Shown: positions 3,159-46,983, numbered from the stretch's first letter. The stretch: DNA of 47,117 bases from an uncultured Eubacteriales bacterium (GCA_964435925.1 CAYTBG010000005.1:1-47117), one strand, 5' to 3'. Made by a program: numbers and translations. Notes: a model not told the origin generated them from the letters alone.

Positions 3159-3187
3159 GGCACGCTTTCTGAGGTAAGCGCTTTTTT

Positions 3188-8307: not shown

Positions 8308-8345
8308 TGTTCGCTATTAAGACAGGGGGTGTACGATACCGAACA
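8308..8345. promoter_or_regulatory. Putative enhancer-binding-protein UAS
   Basis: TGTTCGCTATTAAGACA-N5-TGTACGATACCGAACA, 56 bp from the sigma54 site. Mirrors 3121-3158. Confidence 0.72.
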
Positions 8346-19078: not shown

Positions 19079-19161
19079 TTTTGGTCCTCTTAAGCGAATT
19101 TTCTTCCTGCCTCTCTTAAAAATCAATCATCTTCAAAGGTGATATTGAAGGTGATTTTTTC

Positions 19162-19504: not shown

Positions 19505-19573
19505 AGCATACTAAAATAAAACTCCGCATGGACTGACCTTGGATAACGATTGTATTAAGTCTGAGTGAAGATT
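19505..19573 (-). promoter_or_regulatory. Module-1-type phased direct-repeat box plus -10 (no obvious cognate gene)
   Basis: Plus-strand 11-bp units GGACTGACCTT|GGATAACGATT|GTATTAAGTCT|GAGTGAAGATT (19530-19573). The -10 TATGCT lies 19 nt downstream on the minus strand, the same spacing as at 24861-24929. Confidence 0.6.
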
Positions 19574-19575
19574 TA

Positions 19576-22662: not shown

Positions 22663-24822
22663 TTACTTTTTACTTTTGACCAGCGGCAGAAAATTCTCCA
22701 TCACCCAGAATTCTGGACTGTCACCCTGGTATCCTGAAAAAACAAACCTCTCCCCATCAGGTGACCAGTCAAGATGATACATGTTTATATCTACCAGATC
22801 TGTCTCAATGTCTTCGATACTCCCATCGTCTATTGAAATAACTCTAATATTCTTACCATAACTAGAGCTGGGTGCGTAATTAAAAGCGATCCTTTTGCTA
22901 TCCGGAGACCAGGCCAATTCGATGTTGACATGAACCATTTTTACTTTCGCTACCACACGCGAAACACCATCATTTAACGAGAGGATTTTCAGCGTCCCAC
23001 TATGCGAATTCTCTTCTTCGTCACTGGAAAAATAAGCAATCAGTTTCCCATCAGGTGACCATGCTATGGGACAGCACCAAACACTGTCGGAATCCGATGT
23101 CAAAACATTCGGATCTCCACCATTTAGCGGAACGGTGCAGATGTTCACCTCACCAAATCCCGTAGAATAAACCTTATCAGCTCTTGCGCGTACATAGGCG
23201 ATGGTCTTTCCATCCGGCGACCAACAAGGGAATCCGTTAAGAACGGATGCAGGCGTTTGGGTGAGCTGTTTTGGTTTTCCTCCAACAACGGGTAGTGTCC
23301 AGATTTGCCAGTGCCAACTCGTATCTTTTTTTGTCTGTCCCGACAAAACAATCGTCTTTCCATCCGGAGATACATCATTTCCTCCTCCATATGCCGGTTT
23401 GACGATTTTCTCATCAAACTGAATGGGAACAGTTTTAACTTTGCCTCCCTCAGCAGGAACAACAGCTAATGAAAGTTTTTCCCAATCACCACTCTTCTCA
23501 TCTATATTATTTGTGTGAAATATTCTTTTCCCATCGGGAGACCACCTGGGTTGTGCCGGATACCCTCCATGTGAGACCAACGCCGCCTTGCCACCAGTTG
23601 CCGGCAGCGTGTAAAGGCCAAATTCCGTATGACTGCGAAATACCGCTCCGATTTTATTATCAGGCGTCCATCCTGCTAAAAACATAATTCCCCCAGTTCC
23701 TTCAGGAATGTCAATCTTAACTAACTCCCCGGAGGCCACTCCATCCTCTCCAACAGGTATTATGCAAATTTGCTGGCTCTTCAGGTCCAGAAAAGCAATC
23801 GTGTCACCGTCAGGTGACCAGGTAGGACTTGACGCATTCCCGGCATTGGCAACCAGTTTTGGAGTCCCGTTAGACGCGGGTATCACCCATAAACCTCCAC
23901 CCGCTCTACCCAAATTTTTGGTGTCTACGTACGCGATCATCTTTCCATCAGGAGAAAAGACCGGTTCTCTGGCTTGGGCATCAACCAATTGCTTCGGCAA
24001 GCCCCCATCTACGGAGATTGTATGGATATGACACTCCTTATTGTCAACCGATGAAAAAGCCAGGATCTTTCCGTCCGGAGACAAACTCATTTTATAGTTT
24101 ACGATACGTGCATCCCGGTAATTTTCATATACTTTCCTTGGCTTTCCACCTTCGGCTGAAACAATATACATACCCTGTTTTCCCTCTTTTTCTTTCCGTT
24201 TATCACTTTTTGTCCAATCATTGAATACGATCCATTTACCATCACCAGACCAGGCAAGTCCGGACCAATCAACTTCCACATCGTCGGTATTCAGTATGCG
24301 AGGAGCCCCGGGAAATTCAGAGCCCAGTTTCCCCGATAGGGGCATCATCCAGAGCTTTTTGTCAGATGGAGAAGCGAAGATCACTTTTTTGCCATCCGGA
24401 GAGAACTGCATAACCCAAGAAAGCTTGGTTGGAACCTGAAGCTTTCGGAAAGTAGGTTTATGAGGCACTTTTTCTATTGTCTCAGTCAGCCTGGCAAGTC
24501 TTTCTTTTGCCAGAGCCACTACTTGCTTCTGCCCAGGATACTCGTCTATGAGGCGTTGGTAGGCTTTTTGTGCCTCTTGTTTTCCTAGTTTTTCGTAGCA
24601 CAGTCCGATATGATACAGCGCTTTGGAGGCAGTGGCCTCATTCCCTGAAAAATCATTCAGAATCCTTTCATAAATTGCAATAGCCTTCTCTAGCTCCCCT
24701 TCAACTTCCTCTTTGTATAAGCCGGATTGGTAGAGCTGTTCTGCGCTTTGCTGGACGTATGCTGGTGATACCAAAACTAATGCTAAAGCAAAAACACCAA
24801 GCATAATAAATCGTGATCTCAT
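22663..24822 (-). CDS. Secreted TPR + double PD40 (TolB-like) beta-propeller protein A
   Basis: Sec signal peptide, N-terminal TPRs (ALYHIGLCYEKLG), 12 [WFLV]SPDG-like blades, C-terminal FWVMENFLP. Confidence 0.9.
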   Translation of the reverse strand: MRSRFIMLGVFALALVLVSPAYVQQSAEQLYQSGLYKEEVEGELEKAIAIYERILNDFSGNEATASKALYHIGLCYEKLGKQEAQKAYQRLIDEYPGQKQVVALAKERLARLTETIEKVPHKPTFRKLQVPTKLSWVMQFSPDGKKVIFASPSDKKLWMMPLSGKLGSEFPGAPRILNTDDVEVDWSGLAWSGDGKWIVFNDWTKSDKRKEKEGKQGMYIVSAEGGKPRKVYENYRDARIVNYKMSLSPDGKILAFSSVDNKECHIHTISVDGGLPKQLVDAQAREPVFSPDGKMIAYVDTKNLGRAGGGLWVIPASNGTPKLVANAGNASSPTWSPDGDTIAFLDLKSQQICIIPVGEDGVASGELVKIDIPEGTGGIMFLAGWTPDNKIGAVFRSHTEFGLYTLPATGGKAALVSHGGYPAQPRWSPDGKRIFHTNNIDEKSGDWEKLSLAVVPAEGGKVKTVPIQFDEKIVKPAYGGGNDVSPDGKTIVLSGQTKKDTSWHWQIWTLPVVGGKPKQLTQTPASVLNGFPCWSPDGKTIAYVRARADKVYSTGFGEVNICTVPLNGGDPNVLTSDSDSVWCCPIAWSPDGKLIAYFSSDEEENSHSGTLKILSLNDGVSRVVAKVKMVHVNIELAWSPDSKRIAFNYAPSSSYGKNIRVISIDDGSIEDIETDLVDINMYHLDWSPDGERFVFSGYQGDSPEFWVMENFLPLVKSKK

Positions 24823-24860
24823 GATCGATCCTCCTTTTTACATTTTATTTTTCAGGAGGA

Positions 24861-24929
24861 AAAATACCACAAGAAATATTCGAGTGAATGAAGCTTGTGT
24901 AACGATTGTGTGAAGATTCGGTGAAGATT
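24861..24929 (-). promoter_or_regulatory. Module-1 box (four 11-bp direct repeats) plus extended -10 for protein A
   Basis: Sense strand AATCTTCACCG|AATCTTCACAC|AATCGTTACAC|AAGCTTCATTC, then 19 nt, then TATTTT preceded by TGG. Confidence 0.7.
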
Positions 24930-25529
24930 AAAGATTTGCTCCGAGTTCGCCCAATCACCTTCAAAACGCATACAATTTGTTTTGGGAATTTTGGAGTGAT
25001 TTCGCCTTATTAAAATTATTGGATAGACCCACAAACATTAAGGTAAAATCTGTAATAAACGATCCAGCCCAACAATAAAGGTTCCTCTCTCTACCTGCTT
25101 GAGATAGCCTGATGCATCTATCACCTGAAAAGCTGCAGGAACTTTAATCCGATTTTTAAAATATTTGTCGTATTTATGTTCCTTGCTGACAGACCTTGCC
25201 ACCCGGGCATGATAATTTTTGTATGGCTATTTTCTATAATAGTAGAAAAAAGTCAAGGCCATTTTTCACTAAAGTAGAAATTAGACAATCTATTGCTTTC
25301 CTCTAAAATTGGGGTGCAGGCCTCAATATTCAAGATTGCTGGATAGATGCGTTTTTAATTTATTTTTTTGTAATCGGAAAAATAAAAGTTGCTTTAGCCA
25401 GTTAACTCAAAAGAAATAAGGGAATCGTCCCCCTTGAGTTATTTAACTTTTAGCCCAGTAACGGAGGGGCAGAACTTACAAAGCTTAGATGAAATAAAAG
25501 AAGAGCAATGATTAAGATTGCATATTTTT

Positions 25530-27677
25530 TCATTTCTGCCCTCCTTTACCTTCCTTCTTATCTTTAGGCAGGAAATTCTCCATCACCCAGATCTCTGGGA
25601 GCATTGTGTGACCAGAAAGAGAGCCAAAAGTAATCCGTTCGCCATCAGGATGAACACTCAGCTGTATGAACCCACGCATTGTCAATCCCAGATTTTCGGC
25701 TTCACCTCCTTTAGCCGGAATTCTCCACAGCTCCCTTTCTCCTCCTTCAGAATCGGGTTTTCTTTTGGAGAAATATATATAACGACCGTCAGGGGACCAA
25801 TCGATATCAATGATGTTGCGCCCCTTGAATCCAAATCTATGCAATTCGACAGGTTCCCCTCCCTTAATCGACATTACCTTCAGCACTCTCAAATTTTCCT
25901 CTTCCCGCAAAAGTAAGGCCAGTCGCTGACCGTCAGGGGAGAGAGCTAGGATATTATTATCATGAGGGGGATTTCGAAAAAGCTCTTCCTCTTTTCCAGT
26001 TTCTAGATCTCGAACAACAACCGGATAATATTCGGCAGACTTTGTTTCATGGATATAGAAGATTAACTTTCCATCTAAAGATAATACCGGCGACCAGAGT
26101 GCGTCATAAGATTCTTTTTCCTTTTTCGGAATTAGTAGAGTGGCTTCACCAGTTTGAGCATCAATCTTGTAAATACCCCCACCGGACTGAAAACCCTCAG
26201 CAGGCAGCAGGATGGAACGCCCATCAGGGCACCAATGAGGACGATAAAAGTGAACAAATTTGTCTTTAAAATTAAATTCACGGACTCTTCCTGATTCCGC
26301 AGAATAGAGGCAGAGAATCGATTGACGTTTCCCTGGTCCCCTGAGAGAGACGTAGACAAGGTTTTTTCCGTCAGGTGACCAATCTGGACAGTTATTGTTT
26401 CCTTCGTAGGGAAGAGGATCCTTCTTCGGCTGTTCAATGATATTGCCCGTTTCTGGATCAAGCTTGGCGGAGTAAATATCCCACGTGGCTCCCTCAGTGC
26501 TGTAGTAAAACGAACCATCCTGGCTGAATCCTAGGGACACGATTATCCCTATATCCCGCCTTACAAGCTGAGGATCTCCCTGAGGTTTTCCTTCCAAGAC
26601 TGGAATGATCCAGGCATCCCTGGTTCCTGTGCGGTCGCTTGAGAACAGGATCCATTTTCCATCAGGAGACCAACCAAGCAGATAATCATCAGCCGGATGG
26701 GCGATGAGCGGAATTTTTTTCGTCCCATCTGATGAGATTAGGGAAATATCTTTCTTCCTAAATTCTTCCTTCTGTGGAAAGTCATAGACAATATAGCGGC
26801 CATCAGGGGAAAATCTTGCCTTCATCGGAAAAGGGTCCACTGCATCAAAGGTTTTAAGGATTTGGATAGGGCTGTCTTTAATTGAAATTAAACCTAGCTG
26901 CCAACGTTTCGCCTCATTCAAGAAAAAGGCCAGAATGTTCTTGCCGTCAGGAGACCAATCTGCCAGCTCAACCCATCCCTTGTTATAATCAACTTGGTGG
27001 AGAAGGCGAGGTTCTGAACCGTCAAGTCCTACGATATGCACTTCAACTTGACCTTTAGCACCATCCAACCAGATATAAGCCAATTGCTTTCCATCGGGCG
27101 ACCACACAGAAGTCTCAGCAAAAGCAAAAGATTCATCCCAGGAACCTTTATGGGTGAGATGGCGATTCTTCCCAGTGGCCATCTCTCTTATAGCCAGGTT
27201 GCCGGTTTCCCAGTCTACAAAAGATAGATATTTCCCATCAAAAGAAATCTCACCACTGCCATCCACTTCTTTGCCTGTCCAGACTTGCCTTACTTGAAAT
27301 TCTTTATCTCCTTTTTCTAAGGCAGCCTGTGCTCTGAGGAGAATTGACAATTTTTCCTGCGCCATCCTTACAATATCCCTCTGGCCGGGATAATCGCTGA
27401 TCACCTTTTGGAAAGCTTCCTGGGCTAATTTGGCCTTTTTCTGCCCCAGCTTCTCGTAGCAGATTCCGATACGGAGTTGGGCTTTGGCGGCGAGAGATTC
27501 ATCCTTTGTTTCAGTGACAACCTTCTTATAGAGAGAAATCGCCTCCTCGAGGTTTCCCTCCCCGCGCTCTTTGGCCAGCGCTTTTTGAAACAGATCGTAT
27601 CCGCTTTGAGCGGCAGAACTTGCAAAGATAAGAGGTAAAAAAATGAGAATTGCTATCAAAACTGTAAGTTTTTTCAT
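25530..27677 (-). CDS. Secreted TPR + double PD40 beta-propeller protein B
   Basis: Signal peptide (..ASSAA/Q), TPR AQLRIGICYEKLG, 12 PD40-like blades, IWVMENFLP. ATGA overlap with C. Confidence 0.9.
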   Translation of the reverse strand: MKKLTVLIAILIFLPLIFASSAAQSGYDLFQKALAKERGEGNLEEAISLYKKVVTETKDESLAAKAQLRIGICYEKLGQKKAKLAQEAFQKVISDYPGQRDIVRMAQEKLSILLRAQAALEKGDKEFQVRQVWTGKEVDGSGEISFDGKYLSFVDWETGNLAIREMATGKNRHLTHKGSWDESFAFAETSVWSPDGKQLAYIWLDGAKGQVEVHIVGLDGSEPRLLHQVDYNKGWVELADWSPDGKNILAFFLNEAKRWQLGLISIKDSPIQILKTFDAVDPFPMKARFSPDGRYIVYDFPQKEEFRKKDISLISSDGTKKIPLIAHPADDYLLGWSPDGKWILFSSDRTGTRDAWIIPVLEGKPQGDPQLVRRDIGIIVSLGFSQDGSFYYSTEGATWDIYSAKLDPETGNIIEQPKKDPLPYEGNNNCPDWSPDGKNLVYVSLRGPGKRQSILCLYSAESGRVREFNFKDKFVHFYRPHWCPDGRSILLPAEGFQSGGGIYKIDAQTGEATLLIPKKEKESYDALWSPVLSLDGKLIFYIHETKSAEYYPVVVRDLETGKEEELFRNPPHDNNILALSPDGQRLALLLREEENLRVLKVMSIKGGEPVELHRFGFKGRNIIDIDWSPDGRYIYFSKRKPDSEGGERELWRIPAKGGEAENLGLTMRGFIQLSVHPDGERITFGSLSGHTMLPEIWVMENFLPKDKKEGKGGQK

Positions 27678-29911
27678 CTGTTCCCTCCTTTGCTTTGCTT
27701 TTTATCCAAAGGAAGGAAGTTATCCATGGCATAGATTTCTTTTATTCTTTGGCCAGCCCTGAAAGCGATGTGCTGTCCATCAGGATGGACGCTTAGCCCA
27801 TACACTCTGTCCATTGACAGTCCTATTTTTTGAGGTTCTCCTCCTTCCGTTGAAATTAGCCAAAACTCAAATTTATACCCTCTCTGGAATCGACTTTCTG
27901 CAAATAGTAGTGCTTTTCCATCAGGAGTCCAATCTGTAGTCTCAATTATCTTTCCTTTTTTCCACCTCACCACTTCCCTTGCTTCTCCACCAGATATAGG
28001 TATGATCTTTAAAATAGATTCGTGTGTTTCCCTTTCTCGCACATTGAATGCTAAGAATTGTCCGTCTGGTGAGAGGTCCAGATCTTGCGGGAAGAAAGGT
28101 CGCCCTCCCCAGTAGTAACGCTGAAAATTATCACTATGGATTTCCTTCTTTTCTTTGGATGCGAGGTCAAACATCATGATACGGGCAATTTTTTGCTCGG
28201 GATGTTTGTATATACAGAATATCTTTTTTCCATCTCGGGACAAAACAGGAGCTCCAACTATATCGCCTTTATTGAACTGAAGAATGGATATGAAATCTCC
28301 TGTTTTGGCATCGATCTTGTAAAATCCTTCATGACCTTCTTTTTCGCTTCCTACCGCAAGAATAAAGCGTCCATCAGGATCCCAGCATGTTCCCCATATG
28401 TATCTAAGTTCAGGATATATTTCGCGTTCCTCACCATTCTCTAGGGAACGGATACAGAGAACTGACTTGGAGCCAAGCATATCGTGTCCAGTTTCAGGAT
28501 AAGAGATATAAGCTAAGTACTTTCCGTCTGGCGACCAGTCTGGATGCATTGTAGAGCCTACAAAGTGCTCGGACGCTTTTTTTGGTTTTGACAGAATTTC
28601 ATGAGTTTTGGAATCGATCTCGGCTATGTAAACATCACTGACCACAGTCTCAAAGGCATAATAGAATGATCCATTCTTGTCAAAGCCTTTAGGCCAAATC
28701 GTTCCCACATCCTTTTTAATAAGAACAGGATCTCCCTGAAGTTCACCTTCTGAGACTCGTATAGCCCATATACTTGTAGTTCCTGTGCGGTCGCTGGCAA
28801 AGATAAGGCTTTTCCCATCTGGAGTCCATCCGAGCACGAAATCATCTGCAGGGTGCTTGACCAGAGCAACCTCCTGAGTCCCGTCTATTGAGAGCAGGAA
28901 AATATCTCGCTTTGAAGAATTTTCCTGTTTTAGATCAAAAACAACGTAACGGTCGTCAGGTGAAAATAGCTCTCCTATCATAAAGGCATCGCCGCGAGGG
29001 AGCTTATCAAACGTTTTGAGCACACGCACTGAACCCTCTGCCACAGATATCATCATAAGCTGGCGGGTTTTATCTTTTCTGATGAATTCAGCCAATATGT
29101 ACCTGCCATCCTGTGACCAATCAAGAGGATTCACCTCTGCCAAATTATCATCACTGCAGAGGATTCTTGTATTTGAACCATCAAATCCAGTAATCCTCAG
29201 TTCTTTGAAAGAATCCTTAAAGTTTCCCTCTTCATCCCAGGCATCTTTTAGCGCAAAAACATTCTTGAATTTCAGCCAGGAGTAAGCCACCTTTTTTGTA
29301 TCCGGTGACCAAATGCTCCCACCCCAATGAAATTCGATAGGCTTCTTGGAGGAAGGTTCTCTTGATGCAGACCAAACCTTTTCTTTTGTTATGAAATGCT
29401 TCTTTTTCGTTGCAAATTCGAGAGCGCAAACATTTGGAGAATACATATCCCAGTACAAGAGATAGCGGCCGTCAGGAGAAGGCCTGCCCATGTTACCTCT
29501 GCCGCCCATTCTTGCATAATCCCAGACTTTTCTGATTCTAAATTCCTTATCACCTTTTTTGATGACGGTTTGAGCTTTCACGAGGATGGATAATTTTTCT
29601 TTGGCTACTTTGACTGTTTCGGTCTGGCTGGGATAATTATCAATGACTTTCTGAAAAGCCTTTTGTGCCTCCTTCATTCCTAACTTTTCATAGCATATTC
29701 CAATACGAAGTTGGGCTTTAGCCGCCAGAGATTCATCCTTTGTTTCAGCGACAACCTTCTTATAGAGAGAAATCGCTTCCTCGAGGTTTCCCTCGCCGCG
29801 CTCTTTGGCCAGCGCCTTTTGAAACAAGTCGTAACCGTTTTGAGCAGCAAGACTTCCAAAGCTGAAAGATAACAGGATGAATATTGCTATTAGGATCGAT
29901 AATCTTTTCAT
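27674..29911 (-). CDS. Secreted TPR + double PD40 beta-propeller protein C
   Basis: Signal peptide, TPR almost identical to B, repeated WSPD/FSPD/WTPDG blades, IYAMDNFLP. RBS AAGGAGG. Confidence 0.9.
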   Translation of the reverse strand: MKRLSILIAIFILLSFSFGSLAAQNGYDLFQKALAKERGEGNLEEAISLYKKVVAETKDESLAAKAQLRIGICYEKLGMKEAQKAFQKVIDNYPSQTETVKVAKEKLSILVKAQTVIKKGDKEFRIRKVWDYARMGGRGNMGRPSPDGRYLLYWDMYSPNVCALEFATKKKHFITKEKVWSASREPSSKKPIEFHWGGSIWSPDTKKVAYSWLKFKNVFALKDAWDEEGNFKDSFKELRITGFDGSNTRILCSDDNLAEVNPLDWSQDGRYILAEFIRKDKTRQLMMISVAEGSVRVLKTFDKLPRGDAFMIGELFSPDDRYVVFDLKQENSSKRDIFLLSIDGTQEVALVKHPADDFVLGWTPDGKSLIFASDRTGTTSIWAIRVSEGELQGDPVLIKKDVGTIWPKGFDKNGSFYYAFETVVSDVYIAEIDSKTHEILSKPKKASEHFVGSTMHPDWSPDGKYLAYISYPETGHDMLGSKSVLCIRSLENGEEREIYPELRYIWGTCWDPDGRFILAVGSEKEGHEGFYKIDAKTGDFISILQFNKGDIVGAPVLSRDGKKIFCIYKHPEQKIARIMMFDLASKEKKEIHSDNFQRYYWGGRPFFPQDLDLSPDGQFLAFNVRERETHESILKIIPISGGEAREVVRWKKGKIIETTDWTPDGKALLFAESRFQRGYKFEFWLISTEGGEPQKIGLSMDRVYGLSVHPDGQHIAFRAGQRIKEIYAMDNFLPLDKKQSKGGNR

Positions 29912-29943
29912 GCCTTTCCTCCTTTGTTTTTTAATCCTCTCAT

Positions 29944-30052
29944 AATTTAGTTCTTCCAGTTTTGGAATGTGTCATGATATTGTGTTGATAATGCAATTTT
30001 TATGTCAATTTTATTCCTGAAAATTGTCTGCTTTTTGTCATGAAAATGTCAT
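29944..30052 (-). promoter_or_regulatory. Module-2 box (eight phased 11-bp units) plus -10 for the C-B operon
   Basis: Sense ATGACATTTTC|ATGACAAAAAG|CAGACAATTTT|CAGGAATAAAA|TTGACATAAAA|ATTGCATTATC|AACACAATATC|ATGACACATTC (30052-29965); -10 TAAATT at 29949-29944. Confidence 0.7.
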
Positions 30053-30741
30053 CTCTCGAGGACCAGCTTGTAGCCAACACCGTGAACCGTAAGCAGGTGG
30101 CGTGGCTTGGAAGGATCTTCTTCAAGCTTGGAACGGAGCAAAGCGATATGATTGTCAACAGTACGGGTTGTAGGATACTGTTCATAGCCCCACACCTCAT
30201 CGAGGAGTTCGTCGCGAGTGACTACTTCGCCGACCCGAGCAGCCAATAAGCGAAGAATTCCGAATTCCTTGCGCGACATATTAAGAACTTTGTCCTCTCT
30301 GCGGGCTTCAAAGCTTTTGAAATCTATTAAAACTTTGCCAAAGCGTAGCTCGTTCGGAAGAGGCCCAATCTTAGACCGCTGCATCCGACGCAAAATGGCA
30401 CGGATGCGAGCCAGTAACTCTGGCACAGAAAAAGGCTTTGTAACATAATCATCGGCTCCTAGATCCAATCCGAGCACCCGATCCACTTCCTCACCCCGGG
30501 CAGTCAACATCAAGATTGGCGTGGTTAGTCCTTCTTCGCGCACTTTGCGGCAGAGCTCATACCCACTCATCTTGGGCAGCATTAAATCCAGGATAATCAG
30601 GTCGGGTTTTTTCTCTTGTATCAAACAGTAACCCTGCTCACCATCCGTAGCAGTCAAGACCTCGTACTTATCATACTCTAGGTTGTCCTTTAGTCCCCGC
30701 AGTATCGCCCGATCATCCTCGATGATGAGAATCCGTTTCAT
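30049..30741 (-). CDS. OmpR/PhoB-family response regulator RR2
   Basis: IEDD, IILDLMLP, GADDYVTKPF, RTVDNHIALLRSK. Confidence 0.97.
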   Translation of the reverse strand: MKRILIIEDDRAILRGLKDNLEYDKYEVLTATDGEQGYCLIQEKKPDLIILDLMLPKMSGYELCRKVREEGLTTPILMLTARGEEVDRVLGLDLGADDYVTKPFSVPELLARIRAILRRMQRSKIGPLPNELRFGKVLIDFKSFEARREDKVLNMSRKEFGILRLLAARVGEVVTRDELLDEVWGYEQYPTTRTVDNHIALLRSKLEEDPSKPRHLLTVHGVGYKLVLER

Positions 30742-32714: not shown

Positions 32715-32740
32715 AGGGTTGACCCTTTTTTCAATAGTAT

Positions 32741-32784
32741 ATTCTAAAATACCCCCAAAGATAAAGATGTCACGAAAATGTCAT
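32741..32784 (-). promoter_or_regulatory. Module-2 box plus -10 upstream of HK2 (putative autoregulation)
   Basis: Sense ATGACATTTTCGTGACA (32784-32768) is a 16/17 match to the first units upstream of C; -10 TAGAAT at 32746-32741. Confidence 0.72.
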
Positions 32785-32794
32785 AAGGCAAACA

Positions 32795-32874
32795 GGGTCA
32801 AATCTTTATTATTGATAAAGCTAGTGTCGTGTCAAATGGTTTGAGATTTTTTGTCAATAATAATAATTTAACCC
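32795..32874. repeat. REP-doublet-like imperfect inverted repeat (GGGTCA...TGACCC class)
   Basis: GGGTCAAATCTTTATTATTGATAAA and TTTGTCAATAATAATAATTTAACCC, 21/25 complementary. Confidence 0.6.
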
Positions 32875-32893
32875 CGTTTTTCTTTACTTTTCT

Positions 32894-35026: not shown

Positions 35027-35077
35027 GATATTACCTCCTGATATTTCGTCCTGCGGGTGAGTTTTTCATTCACAAAC

Positions 35078-35140
35078 AATGTAGGTTTTTTAGTTTCTCA
35101 AGTTGTCAAATAAAACTAAAAAAATGTAAAAGATTGTCAT
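35078..35140 (-). promoter_or_regulatory. Module-3 box plus -10 for protein D
   Basis: Plus-strand half sites TGTCA/ACTAA/TGTAA/TGTCA at 35104, 35115, 35125, 35135 (11-10-10 spacing); -10 TACATT at 35083-35078. Confidence 0.72.
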
Positions 35141-35150
35141 TTCTCTTTTA

Positions 35151-37259
35151 TCAATCAGCTTTTTTTACTAAAGGCAGGAAGTCCTCCATCAGGAAAAGAT
35201 CGTAGTCGCCGCCCTTTTCCGAGTCAAAAGCTATCTTCTTTCCATCAGGCGACCAGGTAATGCGGCGTATTCTCGCATCCATTCCCGTATTTACTTCCAC
35301 TGGCTCTCCTCCAGTAAAAGGAATCACAAAAATTTTCCCTGTGCGCACATAACCAATTTTCTGCCCATCAGGCGACCAGGACAAACCACCTCCCTCTTTC
35401 CGTTTCACCAGGACTTTAGGTTCTCCTCCAGTAAAAGGAACAATTTTAATTGCCCCTTCAGGACCACAGCCATAAGCTATGGATTTTCCATCCGGAGACC
35501 ATGTGTTTGAGCCTTCAACTTCGTCGGGTGAAAATGTGAGCTGTCTAAGCTTGCTTCCTTCTGCCGATACGATAAACAGGTCAGTTTTATACGTTTTTCC
35601 ATTTGATTTTTTCTGCTGGCGTGAGAACACAATCCATTGCCCGTCAGGTGACCAAGAAGGAAAGACGTCTACTCCAGGGCTTGAAGTGATTTGTTTGGGC
35701 TCTCCTCCTTTGATAGATACAGTCCAGATATGTGCCTTGGAGGTTCCCTTTTCTCCCGCCGGAAAAGCGATCTTTTTGCCATCTGGCGAGACACTCGGAT
35801 AATACCAGCCTAATTCCAGATTTTCTGTAATAGGAACGATAGAAACATCTCCGCCTTCAGCAGACGACCAGCAAATTTTTCCTTCCATGAAGAAATAGAG
35901 CCTATTCCCATCAGGGCTCCAAGCCGGATGATCTGTTGAGGCAGGAGTCACTTGAGTGGCTTTGCCTCCTGATGAAGGCACCGTGTAGATGGCCCTGTGG
36001 ATTGGATTCTGCAGAAGAAAGCCGATTTTGTTATCTGACATCCAACCTGCCAATCTCCATGACGATTCTAGCGGAAGGTCAATCTTCGTGGGTGCTGCCG
36101 TCGGTTTTCCGCTCTCAGAGACAGGAACTATCCATACTTCCTTGCAACCTTTGTCAGGTACAGGCTCTCTTAAAAAAGCGATCATTCGACTATTGGGGGA
36201 CCACAAAGAATCTTGAATTCTTCCACCTAAATTGGAAATTTGCACTGGTTTTCCTCCAGATAGGGAAGTTACCCACAAATCCGAAAGCCATGGTTCTTTT
36301 TCTTGAGAACAAACTTTCACATAAGCTAATTTCTTGCCATCAGGAGAGAATGAAGGAAGCCAGGTTTGCGGCTCTGTTTGCTTTCTCGTCGTCCCACCAT
36401 CCACTGGAACCGTGTAGATAAAAGACTGTTTCGACTCTCCTCCAGATTCACCAATCTCTTTTGAAGCATAGGCTAATATTTCGCCATCAGGTGAAAGGCT
36501 CAGGCAATACTGAGAAAAATGGAAACCTCCCCCTCGGTTTACTGGAGCCAAGATTTTCTTTGGCTTACCCCCTGAAGAGGGAATAACATGAATTTCGTCG
36601 ACAAATATATCTTTCTCATTCCTCATATAATTGTAGGCTATCCATTTACCGTCGTTAGACCAGACATGCCCCCATGTCCAGATCTTATCCTCTCCAGCCA
36701 ACTTAGAGGGTTCGCCGGCAATATCAGGACTGACCTTACCCGGTAAAGGGACAATCCACATGCTTCCTTCATACAGCATCGAAGAGAAAGTGAGCATCTT
36801 ACCGTCTGGAGATAACTGCGCTCCTTGGGAAAGTTTAACAGGGATACTTATTTTTCTGAAGATGGGCTTAGGGGGAGCCTTTTCCTTTGCTTTGGAAAGG
36901 GCCGCCATCTTTTCTCTGGCAATGGCCACTTCTTGCTGCTGCTCAGGATAATTGTCGACCACCTTCTGGAAGGCTTGCTGGGCTTGTTTTGCCTGCTCTT
37001 CACCCAGTTTTTCATAGCAGAGACCGATATAGAGCTGAGATTTGGCGGCATATTCTCTTTCATCTGGATATTTTTCAATGATCTCGCTAAACAGCTTAAT
37101 AGCTCCTTTGAGATCGCCTTTTGTTTCCATCGTGAATTTCGCCTTCTCGAAAAGAACTTTGTGCTCAGAGGAATTCTGGAAGCCGAAGGCCATGAGTATG
37201 GCTGCTATGAATACGGCTACTGTAAAAGAAATGAAAATAAAAGTCTTTTTTGAATTCAT
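35151..37259 (-). CDS. Secreted TPR + double PD40 beta-propeller protein E
   Basis: Start moved to MNSKKTF (37259; RBS AGGAGGT; collinear with D). D-type TPR, A-type propeller, C-terminal LFLMEDFLP. Confidence 0.9.
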   Translation of the reverse strand: MNSKKTFIFISFTVAVFIAAILMAFGFQNSSEHKVLFEKAKFTMETKGDLKGAIKLFSEIIEKYPDEREYAAKSQLYIGLCYEKLGEEQAKQAQQAFQKVVDNYPEQQQEVAIAREKMAALSKAKEKAPPKPIFRKISIPVKLSQGAQLSPDGKMLTFSSMLYEGSMWIVPLPGKVSPDIAGEPSKLAGEDKIWTWGHVWSNDGKWIAYNYMRNEKDIFVDEIHVIPSSGGKPKKILAPVNRGGGFHFSQYCLSLSPDGEILAYASKEIGESGGESKQSFIYTVPVDGGTTRKQTEPQTWLPSFSPDGKKLAYVKVCSQEKEPWLSDLWVTSLSGGKPVQISNLGGRIQDSLWSPNSRMIAFLREPVPDKGCKEVWIVPVSESGKPTAAPTKIDLPLESSWRLAGWMSDNKIGFLLQNPIHRAIYTVPSSGGKATQVTPASTDHPAWSPDGNRLYFFMEGKICWSSAEGGDVSIVPITENLELGWYYPSVSPDGKKIAFPAGEKGTSKAHIWTVSIKGGEPKQITSSPGVDVFPSWSPDGQWIVFSRQQKKSNGKTYKTDLFIVSAEGSKLRQLTFSPDEVEGSNTWSPDGKSIAYGCGPEGAIKIVPFTGGEPKVLVKRKEGGGLSWSPDGQKIGYVRTGKIFVIPFTGGEPVEVNTGMDARIRRITWSPDGKKIAFDSEKGGDYDLFLMEDFLPLVKKAD

Positions 37260-37311
37260 GATATTACCTCCTGATAATATGCCCTGCGATTGAGTTTTTT
37301 CATTCACCAAC

Positions 37312-37374
37312 AATGTAAGTCTTTGCTTTTCCCGAGTTGTCAAATAAAAGTAAAAGAATGTAAAAGATTGTCAA
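37312..37374 (-). promoter_or_regulatory. Module-3 box plus -10 for protein E
   Basis: TGTCA/AGTAA/TGTAA/TGTCA at 37338, 37349, 37359, 37369 (11-10-10); -10 TACATT at 37317-37312. Confidence 0.72.
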
Positions 37375-37388
37375 CAAAGCTTTGAAGC

Positions 37389-37510
37389 ATTGGGGTCAGA
37401 CTTTTATAATTTTTTTTATCTGCATCTTTCTCAAAATTCTAACACGCTATCTTGTTATCCTGAGATAAACGCAAATTATGCAAGTCTGACCCCAATAACT
37501 GACCCCAATA
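37389..37510. repeat. REP-doublet-like inverted repeat (GGGGTCAGA...TCTGACCCC)
   Basis: ATTGGGGTCAGACTTTTATAATTT (37389-37412) and AAATTATGCAAGTCTGACCCCAAT (37473-37496), 22/24 complementary, plus a tandem extra CTGACCCCAATA. Confidence 0.72.
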
Positions 37511-37515
37511 AATTG

Positions 37516-38202
37516 TTACCCAACAAATCGATATCCTTCTCCGTAAACTGAAAGGATATATTCGGGATGAGATGGATCCCCCTCAATCTTTTTCCTCAAT
37601 TTCAATATATGATTGTCGATGGTTCGGGTGGTAGGATATTTTTCATAACCCCAGATTTTATCCAGCAAAGCCTCTCTCGTTACCACTTCTTCCCTATGGG
37701 AAATGAAGTATTTTAAAATCTCTACTTCTAGTGATGTAAGATCCAATTCCTTATCTTTGCGCCTGACTTTGAAGTGTGTAAAATCAATCTCGACATCGCC
37801 AAAGCGATAAACTTCTGGGGCTTTTTTTCTCTCCCTCTTCTCGCGTCTTAAGTGTGCTTTTATCCGCGCTAAAAGTTCCCGGATGCTGAAAGGCTTGGTC
37901 ATATAATCGTCAGCTCCGATTTCCAATCCAAGCACTTTATCAATTTCTTCTCCCTTGGCTGTCAGCATGATAATAGGAATGCTTATATTTTTTTGACGGA
38001 GCTCTCGACAGATATCCAGGCCATTCATCTTGGGGAGCATAATATCAAGGATAATCAGTTGGGGTCTGTCTTCCAGGGCTTTGCGAAGTCCTTCCTCACC
38101 ATCCGCTGCCCAATCCACCTCATATCCCTCGTCTAACAGGTTGAGTTTCAACCCTTTTACCAGGTCTTCTTCGTCTTCTATTATTAATATTTTCTCTTTC
38201 AT
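37516..38202 (-). CDS. OmpR/PhoB-family response regulator RR3
   Basis: IEDE, IILDIMLP, GADDYMTKPF, RTIDNHILKLRKK. Confidence 0.97.
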   Translation of the reverse strand: MKEKILIIEDEEDLVKGLKLNLLDEGYEVDWAADGEEGLRKALEDRPQLIILDIMLPKMNGLDICRELRQKNISIPIIMLTAKGEEIDKVLGLEIGADDYMTKPFSIRELLARIKAHLRREKRERKKAPEVYRFGDVEIDFTHFKVRRKDKELDLTSLEVEILKYFISHREEVVTREALLDKIWGYEKYPTTRTIDNHILKLRKKIEGDPSHPEYILSVYGEGYRFVG

Positions 38203-38204
38203 CC

Positions 38205-40337
38205 TTATTTATCCTTTTTTGGGCCGGAGAGAGGGAAAATCACAGAAAAGACACTACCCTTTCCTGGCTCGCTTTCGACCTTAATCCGGCCCCCATGAGC
38301 TTCGGCGATGTGTTTAACCAGGGTCAGGCCCAGGCCGCTTCCTCCTGCTTCGGAAACAATTTCATTTTTTACCCTGTAGAATCTGTTGAAAATTCTTGAT
38401 GTATCCTTAGGCGAGATTCCTATGCCTTTATCAGCAACCTGAAGGACTGCATTTCCGTTATCTTTGAATAATTTGACGGTTACTTCTTTTATCTTGGGCG
38501 AAAATTTCATGGCATTGCTTAAGAGATTAACCAGCACACTGGCTATAGCTTCTCCATCAAAACTCATCTCCGGAAGATCTGAGGCAATTTCTTTTTGCAC
38601 AGAAAAACCCTTTTTCTCTAAATGATAACGGTATGACTCTAAAGTGTCGCGAACGATCTGGGCCAAGCTGCCTTTTTTAAAATCGAATTCTTTTCTGCCC
38701 ATCTCAATCCGGGAAAAATCAAGAACATTGTTTATCAGGTGCGATAGGCGCTCGCTTTCTTTGGTTATTATCTCATAAGCTTCTTTCCTTTCCTCTTTCT
38801 TAAGGTCTTCTTTTCGCTGGAGCGTCTCCCCATAAAGGCGAATCAGAGTGAGAGGTGTTTTTAGTTCGTGAGAGATATTATGAACGAATTCGGTCTTTAA
38901 GCGTGTAGTTTCTGATTCACGGGAAATATCACGCACTATGAGAAAAGCACCCATAAGCATTAAAGCCACAATAAAAGTCAGAAGAACTCCGTAGAGAAAA
39001 TTCTCCCGCCGTGCGGTCAGTTCAAGGTCACTGAACGCAGGCTGAGAGACAAGAAGTTTCCAGGGAAAAGGGAATTGGCGATAAGATAAACTGAGAGAGT
39101 CTTTTGAAGTTAATTCCTCTTTTCCGGTTAAGATATTCCGACCTCTCTCATCGATGACTTGAAGAGAAAGTCCGGTATCTTTTGTCAGATTTTCTAAAAT
39201 TTTTGGGAATATTTCTTTTTTCAGGGAACTTAGATCCCAACAAAAACCACCATAAAAAGTCCTTTCTGACTGAAAGTTAGGCAGCACAGAGTAAGAGACA
39301 AGACAAAATTCTTCTTTTTGCGCGACAAGCAAGCGTCCTTGTTGTGCTTCGCCTCCCATACGAGAAAGTGTCAGCTTTTCTTTTATCTTTGGGACGGCCT
39401 CTCTCTTTATGAAATCTGTAAAAAGGAGCGCCTCTAAATAAGAAGATCGTTGTTTCTGGAGGCCCAGATAAGATTCTCGAATTTCAGGAAATCTTCCTTC
39501 AGAAAATTTATCATCGAGAATTGACTCTATTTCGACGATGAAAAAGTCATAGGTAGGAAGGTTAACCGGCCAACCTCCTTTCCTAATTTTTCCGTAGAGC
39601 GAGAGCAAAATTTTCAGGCTATTCTCTTCTCTATTTCGGAGCTGCTCGATTTCATACAGCTGAAAGGCAGCCAATATGCCGTAAGGATGCCCCGCTTTAT
39701 TCAGAAATTGCCCGTATTCAGCCGAAAGGTCGCTATATACTTTATAGGCTTCACTATATTTTTTTGAGGATAAAAGACAGCGCCCCAAAGCTCCCAAGGC
39801 TAATGCTTTGTGCTGGTTTGTGGGGGCAAGCGATGTACACTTCCGGTATAATTCAGCAGCTTGGACGTAATTCTTTCTAGAGAATTCAAGAGATTCCGCT
39901 TGCTTAAGAGCCTGAGCAAATTCGGTATTTTGTACATTCTTTTCCCCTGGGAAGATCGAAATGTCTTCTTTTCCGGTTTTAGGGATAATTATTTGGTACT
40001 CGGCATTAAGCAGAAATAGTTGGCCTTCGATTTCCTTTGATAATTTAGAATAATCGGAGAGAGCTTGTTCTGTTTCTTTTATGCCAGTTAGACGAGTGAA
40101 ATTTTCAATCTTTAAAGCTTCTTTTTCATGCTCAAGAAGCTCGCCTTCGATAGATTTCAGGGCGGATTCTCCTGAAATCCAGAGGTTCGACTCGAGTATC
40201 TTTTTTACCGATTCCCGCCTTTCGGCAAAAGTGCTAAAGCTTAAATAACCAACAACTAAGGAAGGAAGTAAAATGGCTAAAAGAAAAATAAAGACTATTT
40301 TCCTCCTGGCCAATATCCCCTGGGTGAATATTCTCAT
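38205..40337 (-). CDS. Sensor histidine kinase HK3 with TPR-containing extracytoplasmic domain
   Basis: Two TMs, TPR (EFSRKNYVQAAELY; ALGALGRCL..KKYSEAYKVY; GHPYGILA), ISHELKTPL, NLLSNAMKF, GSGLGL. Confidence 0.95.
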   Translation of the reverse strand: MRIFTQGILARRKIVFIFLLAILLPSLVVGYLSFSTFAERRESVKKILESNLWISGESALKSIEGELLEHEKEALKIENFTRLTGIKETEQALSDYSKLSKEIEGQLFLLNAEYQIIIPKTGKEDISIFPGEKNVQNTEFAQALKQAESLEFSRKNYVQAAELYRKCTSLAPTNQHKALALGALGRCLLSSKKYSEAYKVYSDLSAEYGQFLNKAGHPYGILAAFQLYEIEQLRNREENSLKILLSLYGKIRKGGWPVNLPTYDFFIVEIESILDDKFSEGRFPEIRESYLGLQKQRSSYLEALLFTDFIKREAVPKIKEKLTLSRMGGEAQQGRLLVAQKEEFCLVSYSVLPNFQSERTFYGGFCWDLSSLKKEIFPKILENLTKDTGLSLQVIDERGRNILTGKEELTSKDSLSLSYRQFPFPWKLLVSQPAFSDLELTARRENFLYGVLLTFIVALMLMGAFLIVRDISRESETTRLKTEFVHNISHELKTPLTLIRLYGETLQRKEDLKKEERKEAYEIITKESERLSHLINNVLDFSRIEMGRKEFDFKKGSLAQIVRDTLESYRYHLEKKGFSVQKEIASDLPEMSFDGEAIASVLVNLLSNAMKFSPKIKEVTVKLFKDNGNAVLQVADKGIGISPKDTSRIFNRFYRVKNEIVSEAGGSGLGLTLVKHIAEAHGGRIKVESEPGKGSVFSVIFPLSGPKKDK

Positions 40338-40381
40338 TGCTGATATCGAAATCGGGCTTTGATTTGGATAAGCTCATTTAG

Positions 40382-40443
40382 ATTTTATCAAATCCAACTA
40401 TTAAAATGTCAAAAAAATGTAAAACTTTGTCAGCAAATGTAAA
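40382..40443 (-). promoter_or_regulatory. Module-3 box plus -10 upstream of HK3 (putative autoregulation)
   Basis: TGTCA/TGTAA/TGTCA/TGTAA at 40407, 40418, 40428, 40438 (11-10-10); -10 TAAAAT at 40387-40382. Confidence 0.72.
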
Positions 40444-40547
40444 AGCTAATTTGATAAGCGGAACGAAAATTTGAAGGAGAATACGTTACACTCAAGGAAC
40501 TGAAGCGTGATATCGAAAAGGAAAAGATGGGACGTAAGTAAAATCGC

Positions 40548-40587
40548 AAAAAGAAAACCACCAGAGGTTGAAATAGCTCTGGGCTTT
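40548..40587 (-). terminator. Putative intrinsic terminator after protein F gene
   Basis: Minus strand CCAGAG-ctatttcaac-CTCTGG followed by TGGTTTCTTTTT. Confidence 0.5.
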
Positions 40588-40643
40588 AATAGGGAAATAT
40601 TTTTATAACTTGGGGAGTTCTTTGCTTCTGCCTTTCTGCTATC

Positions 40644-42767
40644 TCACTGAATGCCTTTTTTTACTAAAGGCAGGAAGTTTTCCATCACCCAGACTTCATT
40701 TGCTTGAGTATAAGTGTCGAAAGCGATCTGATGTCCATCAGGATGAACATGCAGACCGCGCATTTTTTTATCTGTCTGCCAGAGCTTTTGAGGCTCTCCC
40801 CCATCTGAGGAGATTTGCCATAAGCTAGTGCCATAATCTTCGGCTTTGGTAAAGAGTACATGTTTCCCGTCTGAAGACCAATCAAAGGCTCTAATAACTG
40901 CCGCTTCTTTCAGTCTGAGTAATTCCCGGGCCTTTTCTCCAGAAACGGGCATAATCAATATGCTCTCGGCGTCTTTTTCAGGGTAGGCGATGCCAAAAAG
41001 CAGCTTTCGACCATCAGGCGAAAGAGCTAAAATGCTAAATAGATTGGGGTCACAATAGAGCTGCTGCTCCAGGCCCGAGTTGACTTCGCGCCTCAAGATG
41101 CAGCCTCGGTTTACATAAAAAATAGCTTTCCCGTCTTTTGACCATTCTCCCCTGTGCCAACCCCAGTCATCGATCCCCGGTGCATATGGTGCTATAAGGA
41201 TGACTTTTCCGTCACGAACATCGATTTTGTAGAGTCCTCCGACATAATCCTTTTTTTTGTCCTTTTTATAGAAGCTTGTGACCAGAATTGAGTGCCCATC
41301 AGGAGACCAGCGGGGATTATCAAAAAAATCAAGTTCACAAGGAACCTCTCGGTCTTTTCCAGTTTTAAGGGATCGAATATGAAGAATATACTTAAAAAAA
41401 ACGGGCCCTGCAGGCTTGAGTTGCTCAAGGATATAGGCTATGTACTCACCGTCGGGTGACCACTGAGGGGAAAAGTTGGAGCCTAAAAAGGGTTGTTTCA
41501 AAGGAGCCTTGACTTTTCCTATTGCCAGATCGATTGAAGCAATGTAGGAATTAGACCAGCTTCGAAACATGCTAAAAAAGAAGGAGCCATCCTGCTTAAA
41601 TCCCAAGGGGAAAACTTTCCCTATCTCGCTTTTAATCCATCGGGGTGATCCCTTAAGCCTGCCATTTTCGACCTGAATAAGCCAGAGGTCCAAGGCTCCT
41701 GTGCGGTCGCTAATGAATATAACTTCCTTTCCGCCTGGTGCCCAACCAAGCAATTTGTCATTTGCTGAATGCTCAATCAAAGGAGTCTCTCCGCTTCCAT
41801 CCGTGGCAAGCAGGTAGATGTCGTATTTTCCGGAGTCTTCCTTGACCGGAAGGTCAAAGGCGATATACCGGTCATCTGGTGAATGACACACACAATCTTG
41901 TGTTGTTTGCCCTATATCAGATATTTTGAGAACGCGAATGGAACCATCCTTGACAGAGACCCACGCAATCCGGAACTTTTTGTCTTTTCTGCCATACATC
42001 CTGACCGCAATGTGTTTGCCATCTGAAGACCATTGGGCCGGATAGACTTCATAATCTTTGTTACTGTAGAGAATACGAGGAGATGAGCCATCGATCCCGA
42101 TGAGCCTTAAATCATAATAAAAATTCTTATCAGACAGTTTATTATACCAGGAGTAGGCGATTTGCTTGCCGTCAGGAGAAATTTTGGAATAAAACGCAAA
42201 TTGCTGGGCAGCTTTTAAGGATGCTTCGTGGGTGAGGCGGCGCTTTTTCCCCGTAGCAAGCTCGTGAATAGCCAGATCTCCAGTTTCCCAATCCACATAA
42301 GAAAGATAACGGCCATCAGGAGAAGGACCTCCGAAAATATCCACATCAGGGCCTGACCAGACCTGGCGGATTTTGAACTCTCTATCACCTTTTTCAACCA
42401 GAGCCTGGGCCTTTAAAAGAATGGCAATTTTTTCTTCGGCCAACTTGATTTCTTCAGTTTGCTCAGGATAGCTCTCAGCCACTTTCTGGTAAGCCTTTAG
42501 TGCTTGCTTCATTCCCATTTTTTCGTAGCACATACCGATTTGAAGCTGAGCTTTTGCCCCCATTTTTCTGTTGTCAGGAAAGCTGGTTGTAATTTTGAGG
42601 AAAAGCTGGATAGCCCCCTCCAAGTCTCCTTCTGCTTCCTTCTTGAAGATCGCGCCTTCGTAAAGTTCCTCGGCTGACTCTTGGGGCAGAGCTTCTCGCA
42701 AACAGATGAGAGAAAACAGAATTGATATTGCTATGACGAGCCAGAGCGAAATTTTTTTATGGTTCAT
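40644..42767 (-). CDS. Secreted TPR + double PD40 beta-propeller protein F
   Basis: Signal peptide, TPR AQLQIGMCYEKMG, PD40 blades, VWVMENFLP. Confidence 0.9.
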   Translation of the reverse strand: MNHKKISLWLVIAISILFSLICLREALPQESAEELYEGAIFKKEAEGDLEGAIQLFLKITTSFPDNRKMGAKAQLQIGMCYEKMGMKQALKAYQKVAESYPEQTEEIKLAEEKIAILLKAQALVEKGDREFKIRQVWSGPDVDIFGGPSPDGRYLSYVDWETGDLAIHELATGKKRRLTHEASLKAAQQFAFYSKISPDGKQIAYSWYNKLSDKNFYYDLRLIGIDGSSPRILYSNKDYEVYPAQWSSDGKHIAVRMYGRKDKKFRIAWVSVKDGSIRVLKISDIGQTTQDCVCHSPDDRYIAFDLPVKEDSGKYDIYLLATDGSGETPLIEHSANDKLLGWAPGGKEVIFISDRTGALDLWLIQVENGRLKGSPRWIKSEIGKVFPLGFKQDGSFFFSMFRSWSNSYIASIDLAIGKVKAPLKQPFLGSNFSPQWSPDGEYIAYILEQLKPAGPVFFKYILHIRSLKTGKDREVPCELDFFDNPRWSPDGHSILVTSFYKKDKKKDYVGGLYKIDVRDGKVILIAPYAPGIDDWGWHRGEWSKDGKAIFYVNRGCILRREVNSGLEQQLYCDPNLFSILALSPDGRKLLFGIAYPEKDAESILIMPVSGEKARELLRLKEAAVIRAFDWSSDGKHVLFTKAEDYGTSLWQISSDGGEPQKLWQTDKKMRGLHVHPDGHQIAFDTYTQANEVWVMENFLPLVKKGIQ

Positions 42768-42807: not shown

Positions 42808-42873
42808 ATAATATCAAATTCTTCACCACTGCGGGTTAAGTTTGCGTTAAAATTCAGATGCGTTTCTATTAAG
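42808..42873 (-). promoter_or_regulatory. Module-4 box plus extended -10 for protein F
   Basis: Plus-strand GTTAAG/GTTAAA/(GATGCG)/ATTAAG at 42835, 42846, 42857, 42868 (11-bp phase); TGaTATTAT -10 at 42813-42808. Confidence 0.65.
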
Positions 42874-46823: not shown

Positions 46824-46983
46824 CAAATCCTCCTATTCTCAAATTCTTAATTTTTCCTGTTGACCTCACAATAATAATATTATCCCTGGGCACCACCTCC
46901 TATTTTAAGGAATATTTCTGCTTCATTCATTTAATTTGAATTTTCTTCCATCAAGCACTTATCCCCACATTGACATCACAAGT

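Follow-up and report, generated by a model that had tools for sequence, protein, structure and literature searches.

We describe here a stretch of DNA of 47,117 nucleotides from an uncultured Eubacteriales bacterium (GCA_964435925.1 CAYTBG010000005.1:1-47117; hereafter, the window). It carries four modules made of a histidine kinase (HK) and a response regulator (RR), together with six genes, A to F, for secreted proteins that join tetratricopeptide repeats (TPRs) to a PD40 propeller. We call a protein of this family P. It belongs, as contig C5, to a bin of 2.84 Mb and 172 contigs, and a fifth module, HK5-RR5-G, lies on contig C134 of the same bin. Our comparisons across genomes show that the kinase, the regulator, a putative operator and the N-terminal ~50 residues of mature P are passed on together as one block. 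They also show that modules have repeatedly exchanged the part of P located 3' of a TPR segment that all types conserve.

The genes of the locus all lie on the minus strand and read, in the order of transcription, HK1-RR1-F, HK2-RR2-E-D, HK3-RR3-C-B, a gap of 707 nt, A and HK4-RR4. The initial annotation had counted four TPR types for four kinases. The pairing of A with HK4 is right, but A is located upstream and not downstream of HK4, and the fifth module has to be added. HK1 (43553..45706), HK2 (38205..40337), HK3 (30738..32714) and HK4 (20273..22399) belong to kinase clades K1, K2, K3 and K4, respectively, and the eight rows of clade K1 form a starred group (100*). All four kinases contain HisKA (E 4.6e-16 to 4.2e-22) and HATPase_c. 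HK1 has two transmembrane segments around a periplasmic domain of ~410 residues with TPR-like motifs, and weak TPR matches fall in the ~410-residue stretch between two hydrophobic segments of the kinases. RR1 (42880..43560), which served as our regulator query, and RR2 (37516..38202) are of the OmpR/PhoB type; RR2 matches the NCBIfam models PhoB, OmpR and YycF, each under its equivalog cut-off. RR3 (30049..30741), an open reading frame (ORF) of 230 amino acids, was matched to the RR1 query by BLASTP (215 bits, 49% identity), and RR4 (19576..20265) contains Response_reg and Trans_reg_C. With HisKA-type kinases and OmpR/PhoB-type regulators, these pairs are two-component systems.

Genes A to F are six intact ORFs, all on the minus strand. 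Each encodes a signal-peptide-like hydrophobic N-terminus, as judged by eye, followed by a TPR region and about 575 residues of TolB-like PD40 propeller. All six proteins score above the Pfam cut-offs, with TPR_6 (PF13174, cut-off 26.3 bits) at 31.2-41.1 bits and PD40 (PF07676, cut-off 20.9 bits) at 67.3-168.3 bits (E 9e-19 to 1.9e-50). The mature N-terminus of each protein is a short stretch typical of its kinase clade, referred to below as the tag. F (40644..42767) has a K1 tag (about 42531-42686) and a propeller that we classify as type I. E (35151..37259) combines a K2 tag (residues 28-85, 37005..37178) with a type II propeller, and D (32894..35026) combines a K2 tag (34772-34945) with a type I propeller; the conserved TPR segment of D occupies 34673-34771. 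C (27674..29911) and B (25530..27677), which overlap by 4 nt at the end of C and the beginning of B, have K3 tags (about 29696-29839 and about 27462-27605) and type I propellers. A (22663..24822) carries a K4 tag (about 24601-24753) and a type II propeller, and stands displaced, upstream of its own kinase.

The two halves of these proteins group differently. Over the signal peptide and TPR, D and E are 83.9% identical and B and C 74.8%, whereas every other pair shows 34-52%; this bears out the near-identical TPRs that had been read in B and C and, of another kind, in D and E. In the propeller, identity is 40-49% among B, C, D and F and 36% between A and E, versus 23-27% between the two groups. 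The grouping of the propellers proposed from the sequence alone is thus recovered, and all the motifs quoted for it are present in the alignment, namely KGD(K/R)EF..R.VW and S(D/N)RTG in B, C, D and F (type I) and KP.FRK...P.KLS and YT.P..GGKA in A and E (type II). The C-termini of both types share W(V/L)MENFLP and, after it, a few lysines, despite ~25% identity elsewhere. This motif is near-invariant in A to F and their relatives (E699, N700, L702 and P703 in the alignment; 32894-32940 in D); it may form the strand that closes the propeller, or act as a peptide for docking or a handle for recombination.

When D was used to search for the family, 58 of the 151 genomes sampled within the order had members, frequently in several copies per contig, and the named relatives of the locus are labelled Aminicenantales, Acidobacteria and similar. 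Our first set comprised 53 parsed modules, namely those of the window and of contig C134 plus those of 11 arrays drawn from 9 other genomes. A complete HK-RR-P order was found in 46 of these 53, exactly one P being present in 43 of the 46. Since the first-set arrays had been picked for having several matches on one contig, a second set was picked separately, consisting of 20 stretches from 20 other genomes. Of its 23 parsed modules, 4 without a kinase in the stretch were dropped, leaving 19 complete modules from 18 genomes, all in HK-RR-P order, whose clades were assigned by best BLAST hit to the first set. The same order is kept in two distant records, L022 (labelled a Bacteroidales metagenome-assembled genome) and L023, whose kinases are only ~30-50% identical to those of the window. 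Hence, either the architecture reaches past the sampled order or these bins are mislabelled.

To compare the inheritance of the parts, the sequence of P corresponding to D residues 30-118 was taken as its TPR part and that from D residue 136 onward as its propeller part, and separate trees were built for TPR, propeller, kinase and regulator. Nine clades were set from the kinase tree and the changes of clade label were counted on the remaining trees. Gene A was omitted because its module assignment was in question, and one of the 49 labelled genes was dropped for a TPR piece shorter than 80 residues, so that the TPR and propeller counts refer to 48 genes from 10 genomes. We found that the TPR tree requires 8 changes, which is the minimum (shuffled labels, mean 33.3, lowest 28), and so does the regulator tree (49 rows; minimum 8, shuffled mean 34.55, lowest 29). 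The propeller tree requires 31 (minimum 8, shuffled mean 33.3, lowest 27). In the second set, the tag clade agreed with the kinase clade in 19 of 19 modules and the propeller clade in 8 of 19. Furthermore, the approximately unbiased (AU) test rejected the monophyly both of the TPRs from the five genes with type II propellers (p = 3.3e-6) and of the propellers from the K2-kinase modules (p = 4.7e-53). The initial annotation had proposed that propellers are interchangeable, and had named two outcomes that would contradict its proposal, namely congruent TPR and propeller trees and a TPR type that does not segregate with the kinase type in other genomes; neither was found.

Within the window, one product of such an exchange is E, a recipient chimera made of a K2 5' cassette and a type II propeller. 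The DNA of D and E is homologous from about -115 to about +345, with sharp ends on both sides and non-coding DNA included. This homology, together with a ribosome-binding site, places the start of E at the ATG at 37259, and the listed TTG at 37343, which falls within the upstream operator, is a mechanical call. In a sliding comparison, E tracks D through ..EVAIAREK and thereafter G099.m45a, a gene from another genome whose TPR and kinase belong to clade K7 and whose propeller is 65% identical to that of E. In a maximum chi-square scan of E against these two genes, the break fell between residues 127 and 129 of E, with a chi-square of 149 that none of the permutations attained (0 of 2000). To the left of the break 50 sites match D and 3 match G099.m45a, versus 35 and 231 to the right. 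The junction interval, where the DNA homology with D ends and the break falls, spans 36876..36908 (E residues ~118-128), in line with the earlier claim that a D-type TPR meets an A-type propeller just after EVA.A.EK.

The K2 tag is also found in front of other propellers. In six other genomes, tags of the D type precede type I propellers in genes adjacent to K2 kinases. In addition, a 3.8-kb contig of another organism (L020) holds RR-P1-P2, with P2 cut by the contig end. Both of its P proteins have the K2 tag, with a 28-residue core identical to D and E; the P1 propeller is 62% identical to that of G and 44% to that of E, and the P2 propeller is 82% identical to that of G059.m17b. One tag has therefore been joined to still other payloads. 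We found no single deletion or crossover from the arrangements of G114, G029 or G099 that yields the present E-D order.

The clade-specific part of P is shorter than the TPR. Among pairs from different genomes, D residues 21-75 show an identity of 0.45-0.76 within kinase clades versus 0.18-0.43 between them. Across residues 71-115 (LYIGLCYEKLG..AQKAFQKVVDNYP..), which every clade conserves, identity between clades stays at 0.51-0.69, and past about residue 120 the ratio of within- to between-clade identity is 1.03-1.25 in the propeller windows examined. Because clade specificity is limited to D residues ~21-75, the address consists of the mature N-terminus and the first helices, about 50 residues, and not of the whole TPR. 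The swap junctions lie in or just past the conserved segment. Within the genome, the ratio of nonsynonymous to synonymous divergence (dN/dS) is 0.02 in the tag and 0.15-0.35 in the flanking segments. The statement of the initial annotation that the TPR sets kinase specificity needs to be narrowed accordingly: the N-terminal ~50 residues are clade-specific, whereas the remainder of the TPR is conserved across types. The proposal that the tag sets kinase specificity is supported by its dN/dS, its clade-specific conservation and one model of the complex described below.

The DNA between the regulator and P follows the same clades. Each kinase clade has its own conserved repeats immediately after the RR stop, for example GACAATCTTTTACATTCTTTTACTTTT.TTTGACAAC in K2, TGACATTTTCATGACA in K3 and a TTCAC-type repeat in K4. 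In the 110 nt after the RR stop, pairs of modules from the same clade have on average 11.3 7-mers in common (n=114) and pairs from different clades 1.76 (n=833), and in this comparison the regions upstream of D and E score best against K2 and that of A against K4. Direct repeats spaced by ~10 nt suit OmpR-type regulators, and we predict that these clade-specific repeats are an operator that travels with the tag, the kinase and the regulator. In the window, predicted K2 copies lie 5' of E (37336..37372, direct repeat TCTTTTAC with 10-nt spacing) and 5' of D (35102..35138). Operator-like repeats of the K1 type, kept 3' of the RR stop in K1 modules elsewhere, occupy 42834..42865 in the RR1-F gap, and those of the K3 type (TGACA..ATGACA; 30016..30051) begin at the stop codon of RR3. 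A 13-nt perfect inverted repeat, ATTGGGGTCAGAC, separates the stop of RR2 from the K2 operator ahead of E and spans 108 nt (37389..37496; 2 matches versus 0.03 expected). It lies in a 126-nt stretch (37380-37505) that folds at -47 kcal/mol, and one further copy of the 13-mer is present on each of contigs C9 and C28. As in other K2 modules the operator follows the RR stop immediately, this element looks inserted, either as a small mobile element or as a structured terminator.

The displaced gene A fits the same rule. Its tag groups with those of K4 modules (an open fork that is not starred; support by the Shimodaira-Hasegawa-like approximate likelihood ratio test, SH-aLRT, 92), and HK4 is a member of the K4 clade of kinases, which is starred. 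Upstream of A, 135 nt can be aligned to the entire RR-P intergenic region of K4 modules from other genomes and include a predicted K4-type operator (24884..24928). Moreover, ~40 nt after the RR4 stop still resemble the start of that intergenic region, and we take 19541..19574, directly 3' of the stop, as an operator remnant. We also searched the intergenic gaps by blastx for remnants of a lost kinase and found only a 41-residue remnant of an unrelated neighbour gene in the B-A gap (25041..25163, minus strand, 78% identity), whose counterpart in G059 lies between a K3 module and a K4 kinase. The tag group, the K4 operator, the remnant after RR4 and the remnant in the B-A gap indicate together that A moved from behind RR4 to ahead of HK4. 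Hence A belongs with HK4, both by the group of its tag and by its operator.

In the place behind RR4 usually taken by a propeller gene there are now one gene for a DUF4382 lipoprotein-like protein (18587-19126) and another for an MMPL/RND-type transporter (15182-18013). Given the operator remnant, these two genes may now be under the control of RR4.

We infer that, among the proteins encoded by each module, the sensor domain of the kinase would be the sole clade-specific partner exposed to the periplasm. One complex was predicted, that of HK2 residues 36-445 with D residues 28-130, using our own unpaired alignments. The interaction prediction score from aligned errors (ipSAE) was 0.78 in three of three runs, and 0.00 for the best of three controls. 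The mark is reached by 58 of 80 solved complexes and by 2 of 110 mismatched pairs, counts that are only rough for predictions with our own alignments. The predicted local distance difference test (pLDDT) of the partner was 90, and contacts agreed by at least 90% across runs. In the model, the interface of D consists of residues 28-31, 34-35, 37-39, 41-42, 44-48, 50 and 84-86, that is, the clade-specific tag, and the interface of HK2 (148-153, 186, 213-226, 260-269 and 301-308) lies in the TPR-like region. These HK2 residues are better conserved within clades than the rest of the sensor domain (0.58 versus 0.41; Mann-Whitney U test, p = 2e-5) and somewhat more clade-specific (p = 0.01), with invariant positions (E151, R186) interspersed among clade-specific ones. 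The model thus supports binding of the tag to the TPR-like region of the kinase; as it covers the cognate pair only, it is silent on specificity.

On these grounds we propose, as the probable explanation, that the locus is built of tandem three-part modules in which a co-inherited N-terminal docking tag delivers an exchangeable propeller to the cognate kinase. A module consists of a membrane kinase with a large periplasmic TPR-like sensor, an OmpR-type regulator and one or more secreted P proteins. The N-terminal helix of P would act as a kinase-specific docking tag on the TPR-like region of its kinase, and the propeller as the exchangeable binding or sensing part that the tag brings there. 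The regulator of the module would control P through the operator, giving a feedback of the kind that CpxR exerts on cpxP. Exchange would probably proceed by homologous recombination in the conserved TPR segment, with the conserved 3' end encoding WVMENFLP as a possible second flank.

Several observations weigh against this proposal. The tag is the part of P closest to the regulator gene, and between clades the first DNA homology met in the 3' direction is the conserved TPR segment, so linkage combined with homology-limited recombination yields the same co-segregation without any docking. We found no P gene distant from a kinase, which leaves linkage and function inseparable. Close cousins of a true partner also pass the mark used for complex predictions, and the score has therefore no bearing on specificity. 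P itself could be an output of the system and not an input. On the technical side, the trees come from quick IQ-TREE searches for which SH-aLRT is the sole measure of support, the TPR alignment is short (92 columns), the gene calls are crude ORFs and every genome is a metagenome bin.

The first of these points leads to an alternative that we regard as rather unlikely, although it is the strongest of those considered, namely that P is simply a regulated output gene. Its 5' end would stay with the module by adjacency, recombination would start only in the conserved TPR segment, and the differences between tags would be historical and involve no contact with the kinase. This agrees with the contiguity of kinase, regulator, operator and tag, all four of which track each other, with a conserved segment that starts exactly where clade specificity ends, and with the location of the longest identical nucleotide runs between modules in conserved segments (CYEKLG and the WVMENFLP end). 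It does not account for a tag under very strong purifying selection (dN/dS of 0.02), with 28 residues kept identical in a distant genome in front of other payloads. The sharp divergence of the tag between clades is the pattern expected of a specificity determinant. Finally, the model places the tag residues on the kinase (0.78 versus 0.00 for its controls), and the kinase residues contacted are those better conserved within clades.

A further possibility is that the likeness of D to E and of B to C in the TPR reflects concerted evolution, that is, recent conversion between neighbours with no meaning beyond this genome. The similar pairs are indeed adjacent, and the tract shared by D and E is sharp-ended and includes non-coding DNA; for B and C the homologous tract runs from about -15 to about +390. 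However, the tags of D and E (codons 29-85) are 96.5% identical in amino acids with a dN of 0.015 and a dS of 0.665, and those of B and C (codons 25-77) 96.2% identical with 0.016 and 0.679. Such values, dS ~0.67 while dN is ~0.015, indicate that selection and not fresh gene conversion keeps the tags alike. Each tag type is also met again beside its own kinase clade, both in the first set (9 other genomes) and in the 18 genomes of the second, and the TPR of B pairs with that of G114.m26a rather than with that of C (SH-aLRT 96). Recent gene conversion was thus rejected as a full explanation by the divergence of the tags and their recurrence across genomes, and we hold concerted evolution to be very improbable. 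Still more improbable is that E is a chimeric contig join at a repeated TPR: repeated 5' cassettes could mislead an assembler in a bin of 172 contigs, but the cassettes of D and E, at ~85-90% DNA identity, are too different to be collapsible repeats, both ORFs are intact, the E junction lies in a diverged stretch, and the arrangement of two P genes with a K2 tag recurs in the unrelated L020.

Returning to the docking-tag proposal, the nucleotide sequence offers some indication of how propellers are exchanged. Between paralogues of different modules, the longest identical runs measure 12-27 nt and fall in conserved segments. The longest of all (19-27 nt) are in the WVMENFLPLVKK end, within the codons of the C-terminal motif, and others are in CYEKLG/AFQK and in SPDG-type PD40 repeats. 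Array order varies between genomes. If single unequal crossovers were the sole mechanism, each propeller would be expected to remain tied to the module that follows it. When the propeller tree was labelled with the kinase clade of the downstream module, 24 changes were counted versus 28.0 for shuffled labels, with 9 of 500 shuffles as low. This linkage is weak and leaves most swaps unexplained, so that unequal single crossovers were rejected as the sole mechanism; the pattern suggests recombination at both conserved flanks plus unequal crossovers.

We also put forward, more tentatively and as somewhat short of an even chance, a wider reading in which Aminicenantales-like bacteria possess a natural plug-and-play system of sensing. 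At least nine kinase clades would each have a private docking helix of ~25-50 residues, and any propeller cartridge placed behind it would report to that kinase. The conserved flanks CYEKLG..AFQKV..NYP and WVMENFLP would serve as recombination handles through which specificities are exchanged within and between genomes, and one kinase could be served by two cartridges, as with E and D or P1 and P2 of L020.

With regard to the function of the propeller, a ligand-binding or sensing input is suggested by a single relative, a fusion to a BlaR1-type transducer. In G045 (L113:16902-19778, minus strand), a protein of 959 amino acids joins a BlaR1-type Peptidase_M56 domain (E 3e-60) to a type-I-like propeller. 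Long ORFs of 888-1109 amino acids from the family search are possibly similar to this fusion. Another TPR and PD40 relative, in G011 (L117:17487-19940, minus strand), has the C-terminal part of its propeller replaced by Laminin_G_3, a concanavalin-like lectin domain, which hints at glycan binding by some payloads. In four arrays, a second type of TPR and PD40 protein (~745-775 amino acids) with a stronger and different TPR (TPR_2, TPR_16) is encoded convergently to the last propeller gene of some modules (L099:17349-19673, minus strand; G101_C6 80846-83086; G106_C68 50609-52828; G045_C3 268286-270520).

Elsewhere in the window, positions 594-11308 hold a MacB-type ABC exporter set, with two MacB_PCD/FtsX permeases of 785 amino acids, an ABC ATPase and an HlyD-like adaptor, which adjoins a sigma-54 activator response regulator and a kinase-like gene. 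Upstream of HK1, an ORF of 264 amino acids (46032-46826, minus strand) has a hydrophobic N-terminus and several cysteines and no Pfam match at E <= 0.01.

The modules represent a natural case for studying a long-standing question, how paralogous two-component pathways stay insulated and yet gain new inputs, since the wiring and sensing elements seem to be separable on a third protein. If the docking-tag proposal is true, it would provide a compact and transferable tag for engineering sensor inputs, and it would explain the expansion of this gene family in an uncultured lineage common in sediments. In full-text literature searches we found no description of this family of TPR and propeller proteins.

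As for known proteins with these folds, the propeller of P matches TolB structures (best E 5.1e-28) and TIGR02800, and the TPR weakly matches those of YbgF and BamD. P lacks the N-terminal domain of TolB, its propeller region is about twice as long, and its genes stand in an HK-RR context and not in a tol-pal operon. Identity with TolB was rejected, with scores of 130.9 bits for D and 142.7 for A versus a cut-off of 343.15, an N-terminus made of TPRs and HK and RR genes as neighbours. YbgF/CpoB (TIGR02795) was likewise discarded, D and A scoring 32.2 and 26.0 bits versus a cut-off of 90.1. In the G045 fusion, the propeller occupies the place of the sensor domain in BlaR1/MecR1-type transducers and is covalently attached, whereas in the window it is part of a separate secreted protein.

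Among systems with an accessory protein, cpxP is controlled by the regulator of its own system, and the P gene resembles it in having an operator-like site matched to the module regulator. We know of no split into tag and payload, nor of domain exchange, in CpxP, which unlike P is a small helical protein without a propeller and belongs to a single system and not to a family of paralogous modules. CpxP is described as a periplasmic accessory protein that acts on the sensor domain of the kinase CpxA in the envelope stress response of E. coli (PMC4160245). QseG-QseE-QseF and HbpS-SenS-SenR also include an extracytoplasmic third protein, whose gene accompanies those of the kinase and regulator and which binds the kinase or modulates it (PMC12691602, PMC6075780, PMC4991794). 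The modules described here share the gene arrangement, as a third protein, extracytoplasmic as judged by eye, is encoded beside the kinase and regulator. QseG, a lipoprotein, and HbpS, an octameric haem-binding protein, have folds unrelated to P, and each of these systems has one accessory protein, with no evidence of an interchangeable sensing domain on a kinase-specific tag. Compared with these accessory-protein systems, their closest functional analogues, the modules described here differ in the TPR and propeller fold of P, in their expansion to a large number of paralogous modules and, above all, in the division of P into a co-inherited tag and a freely exchanged body.

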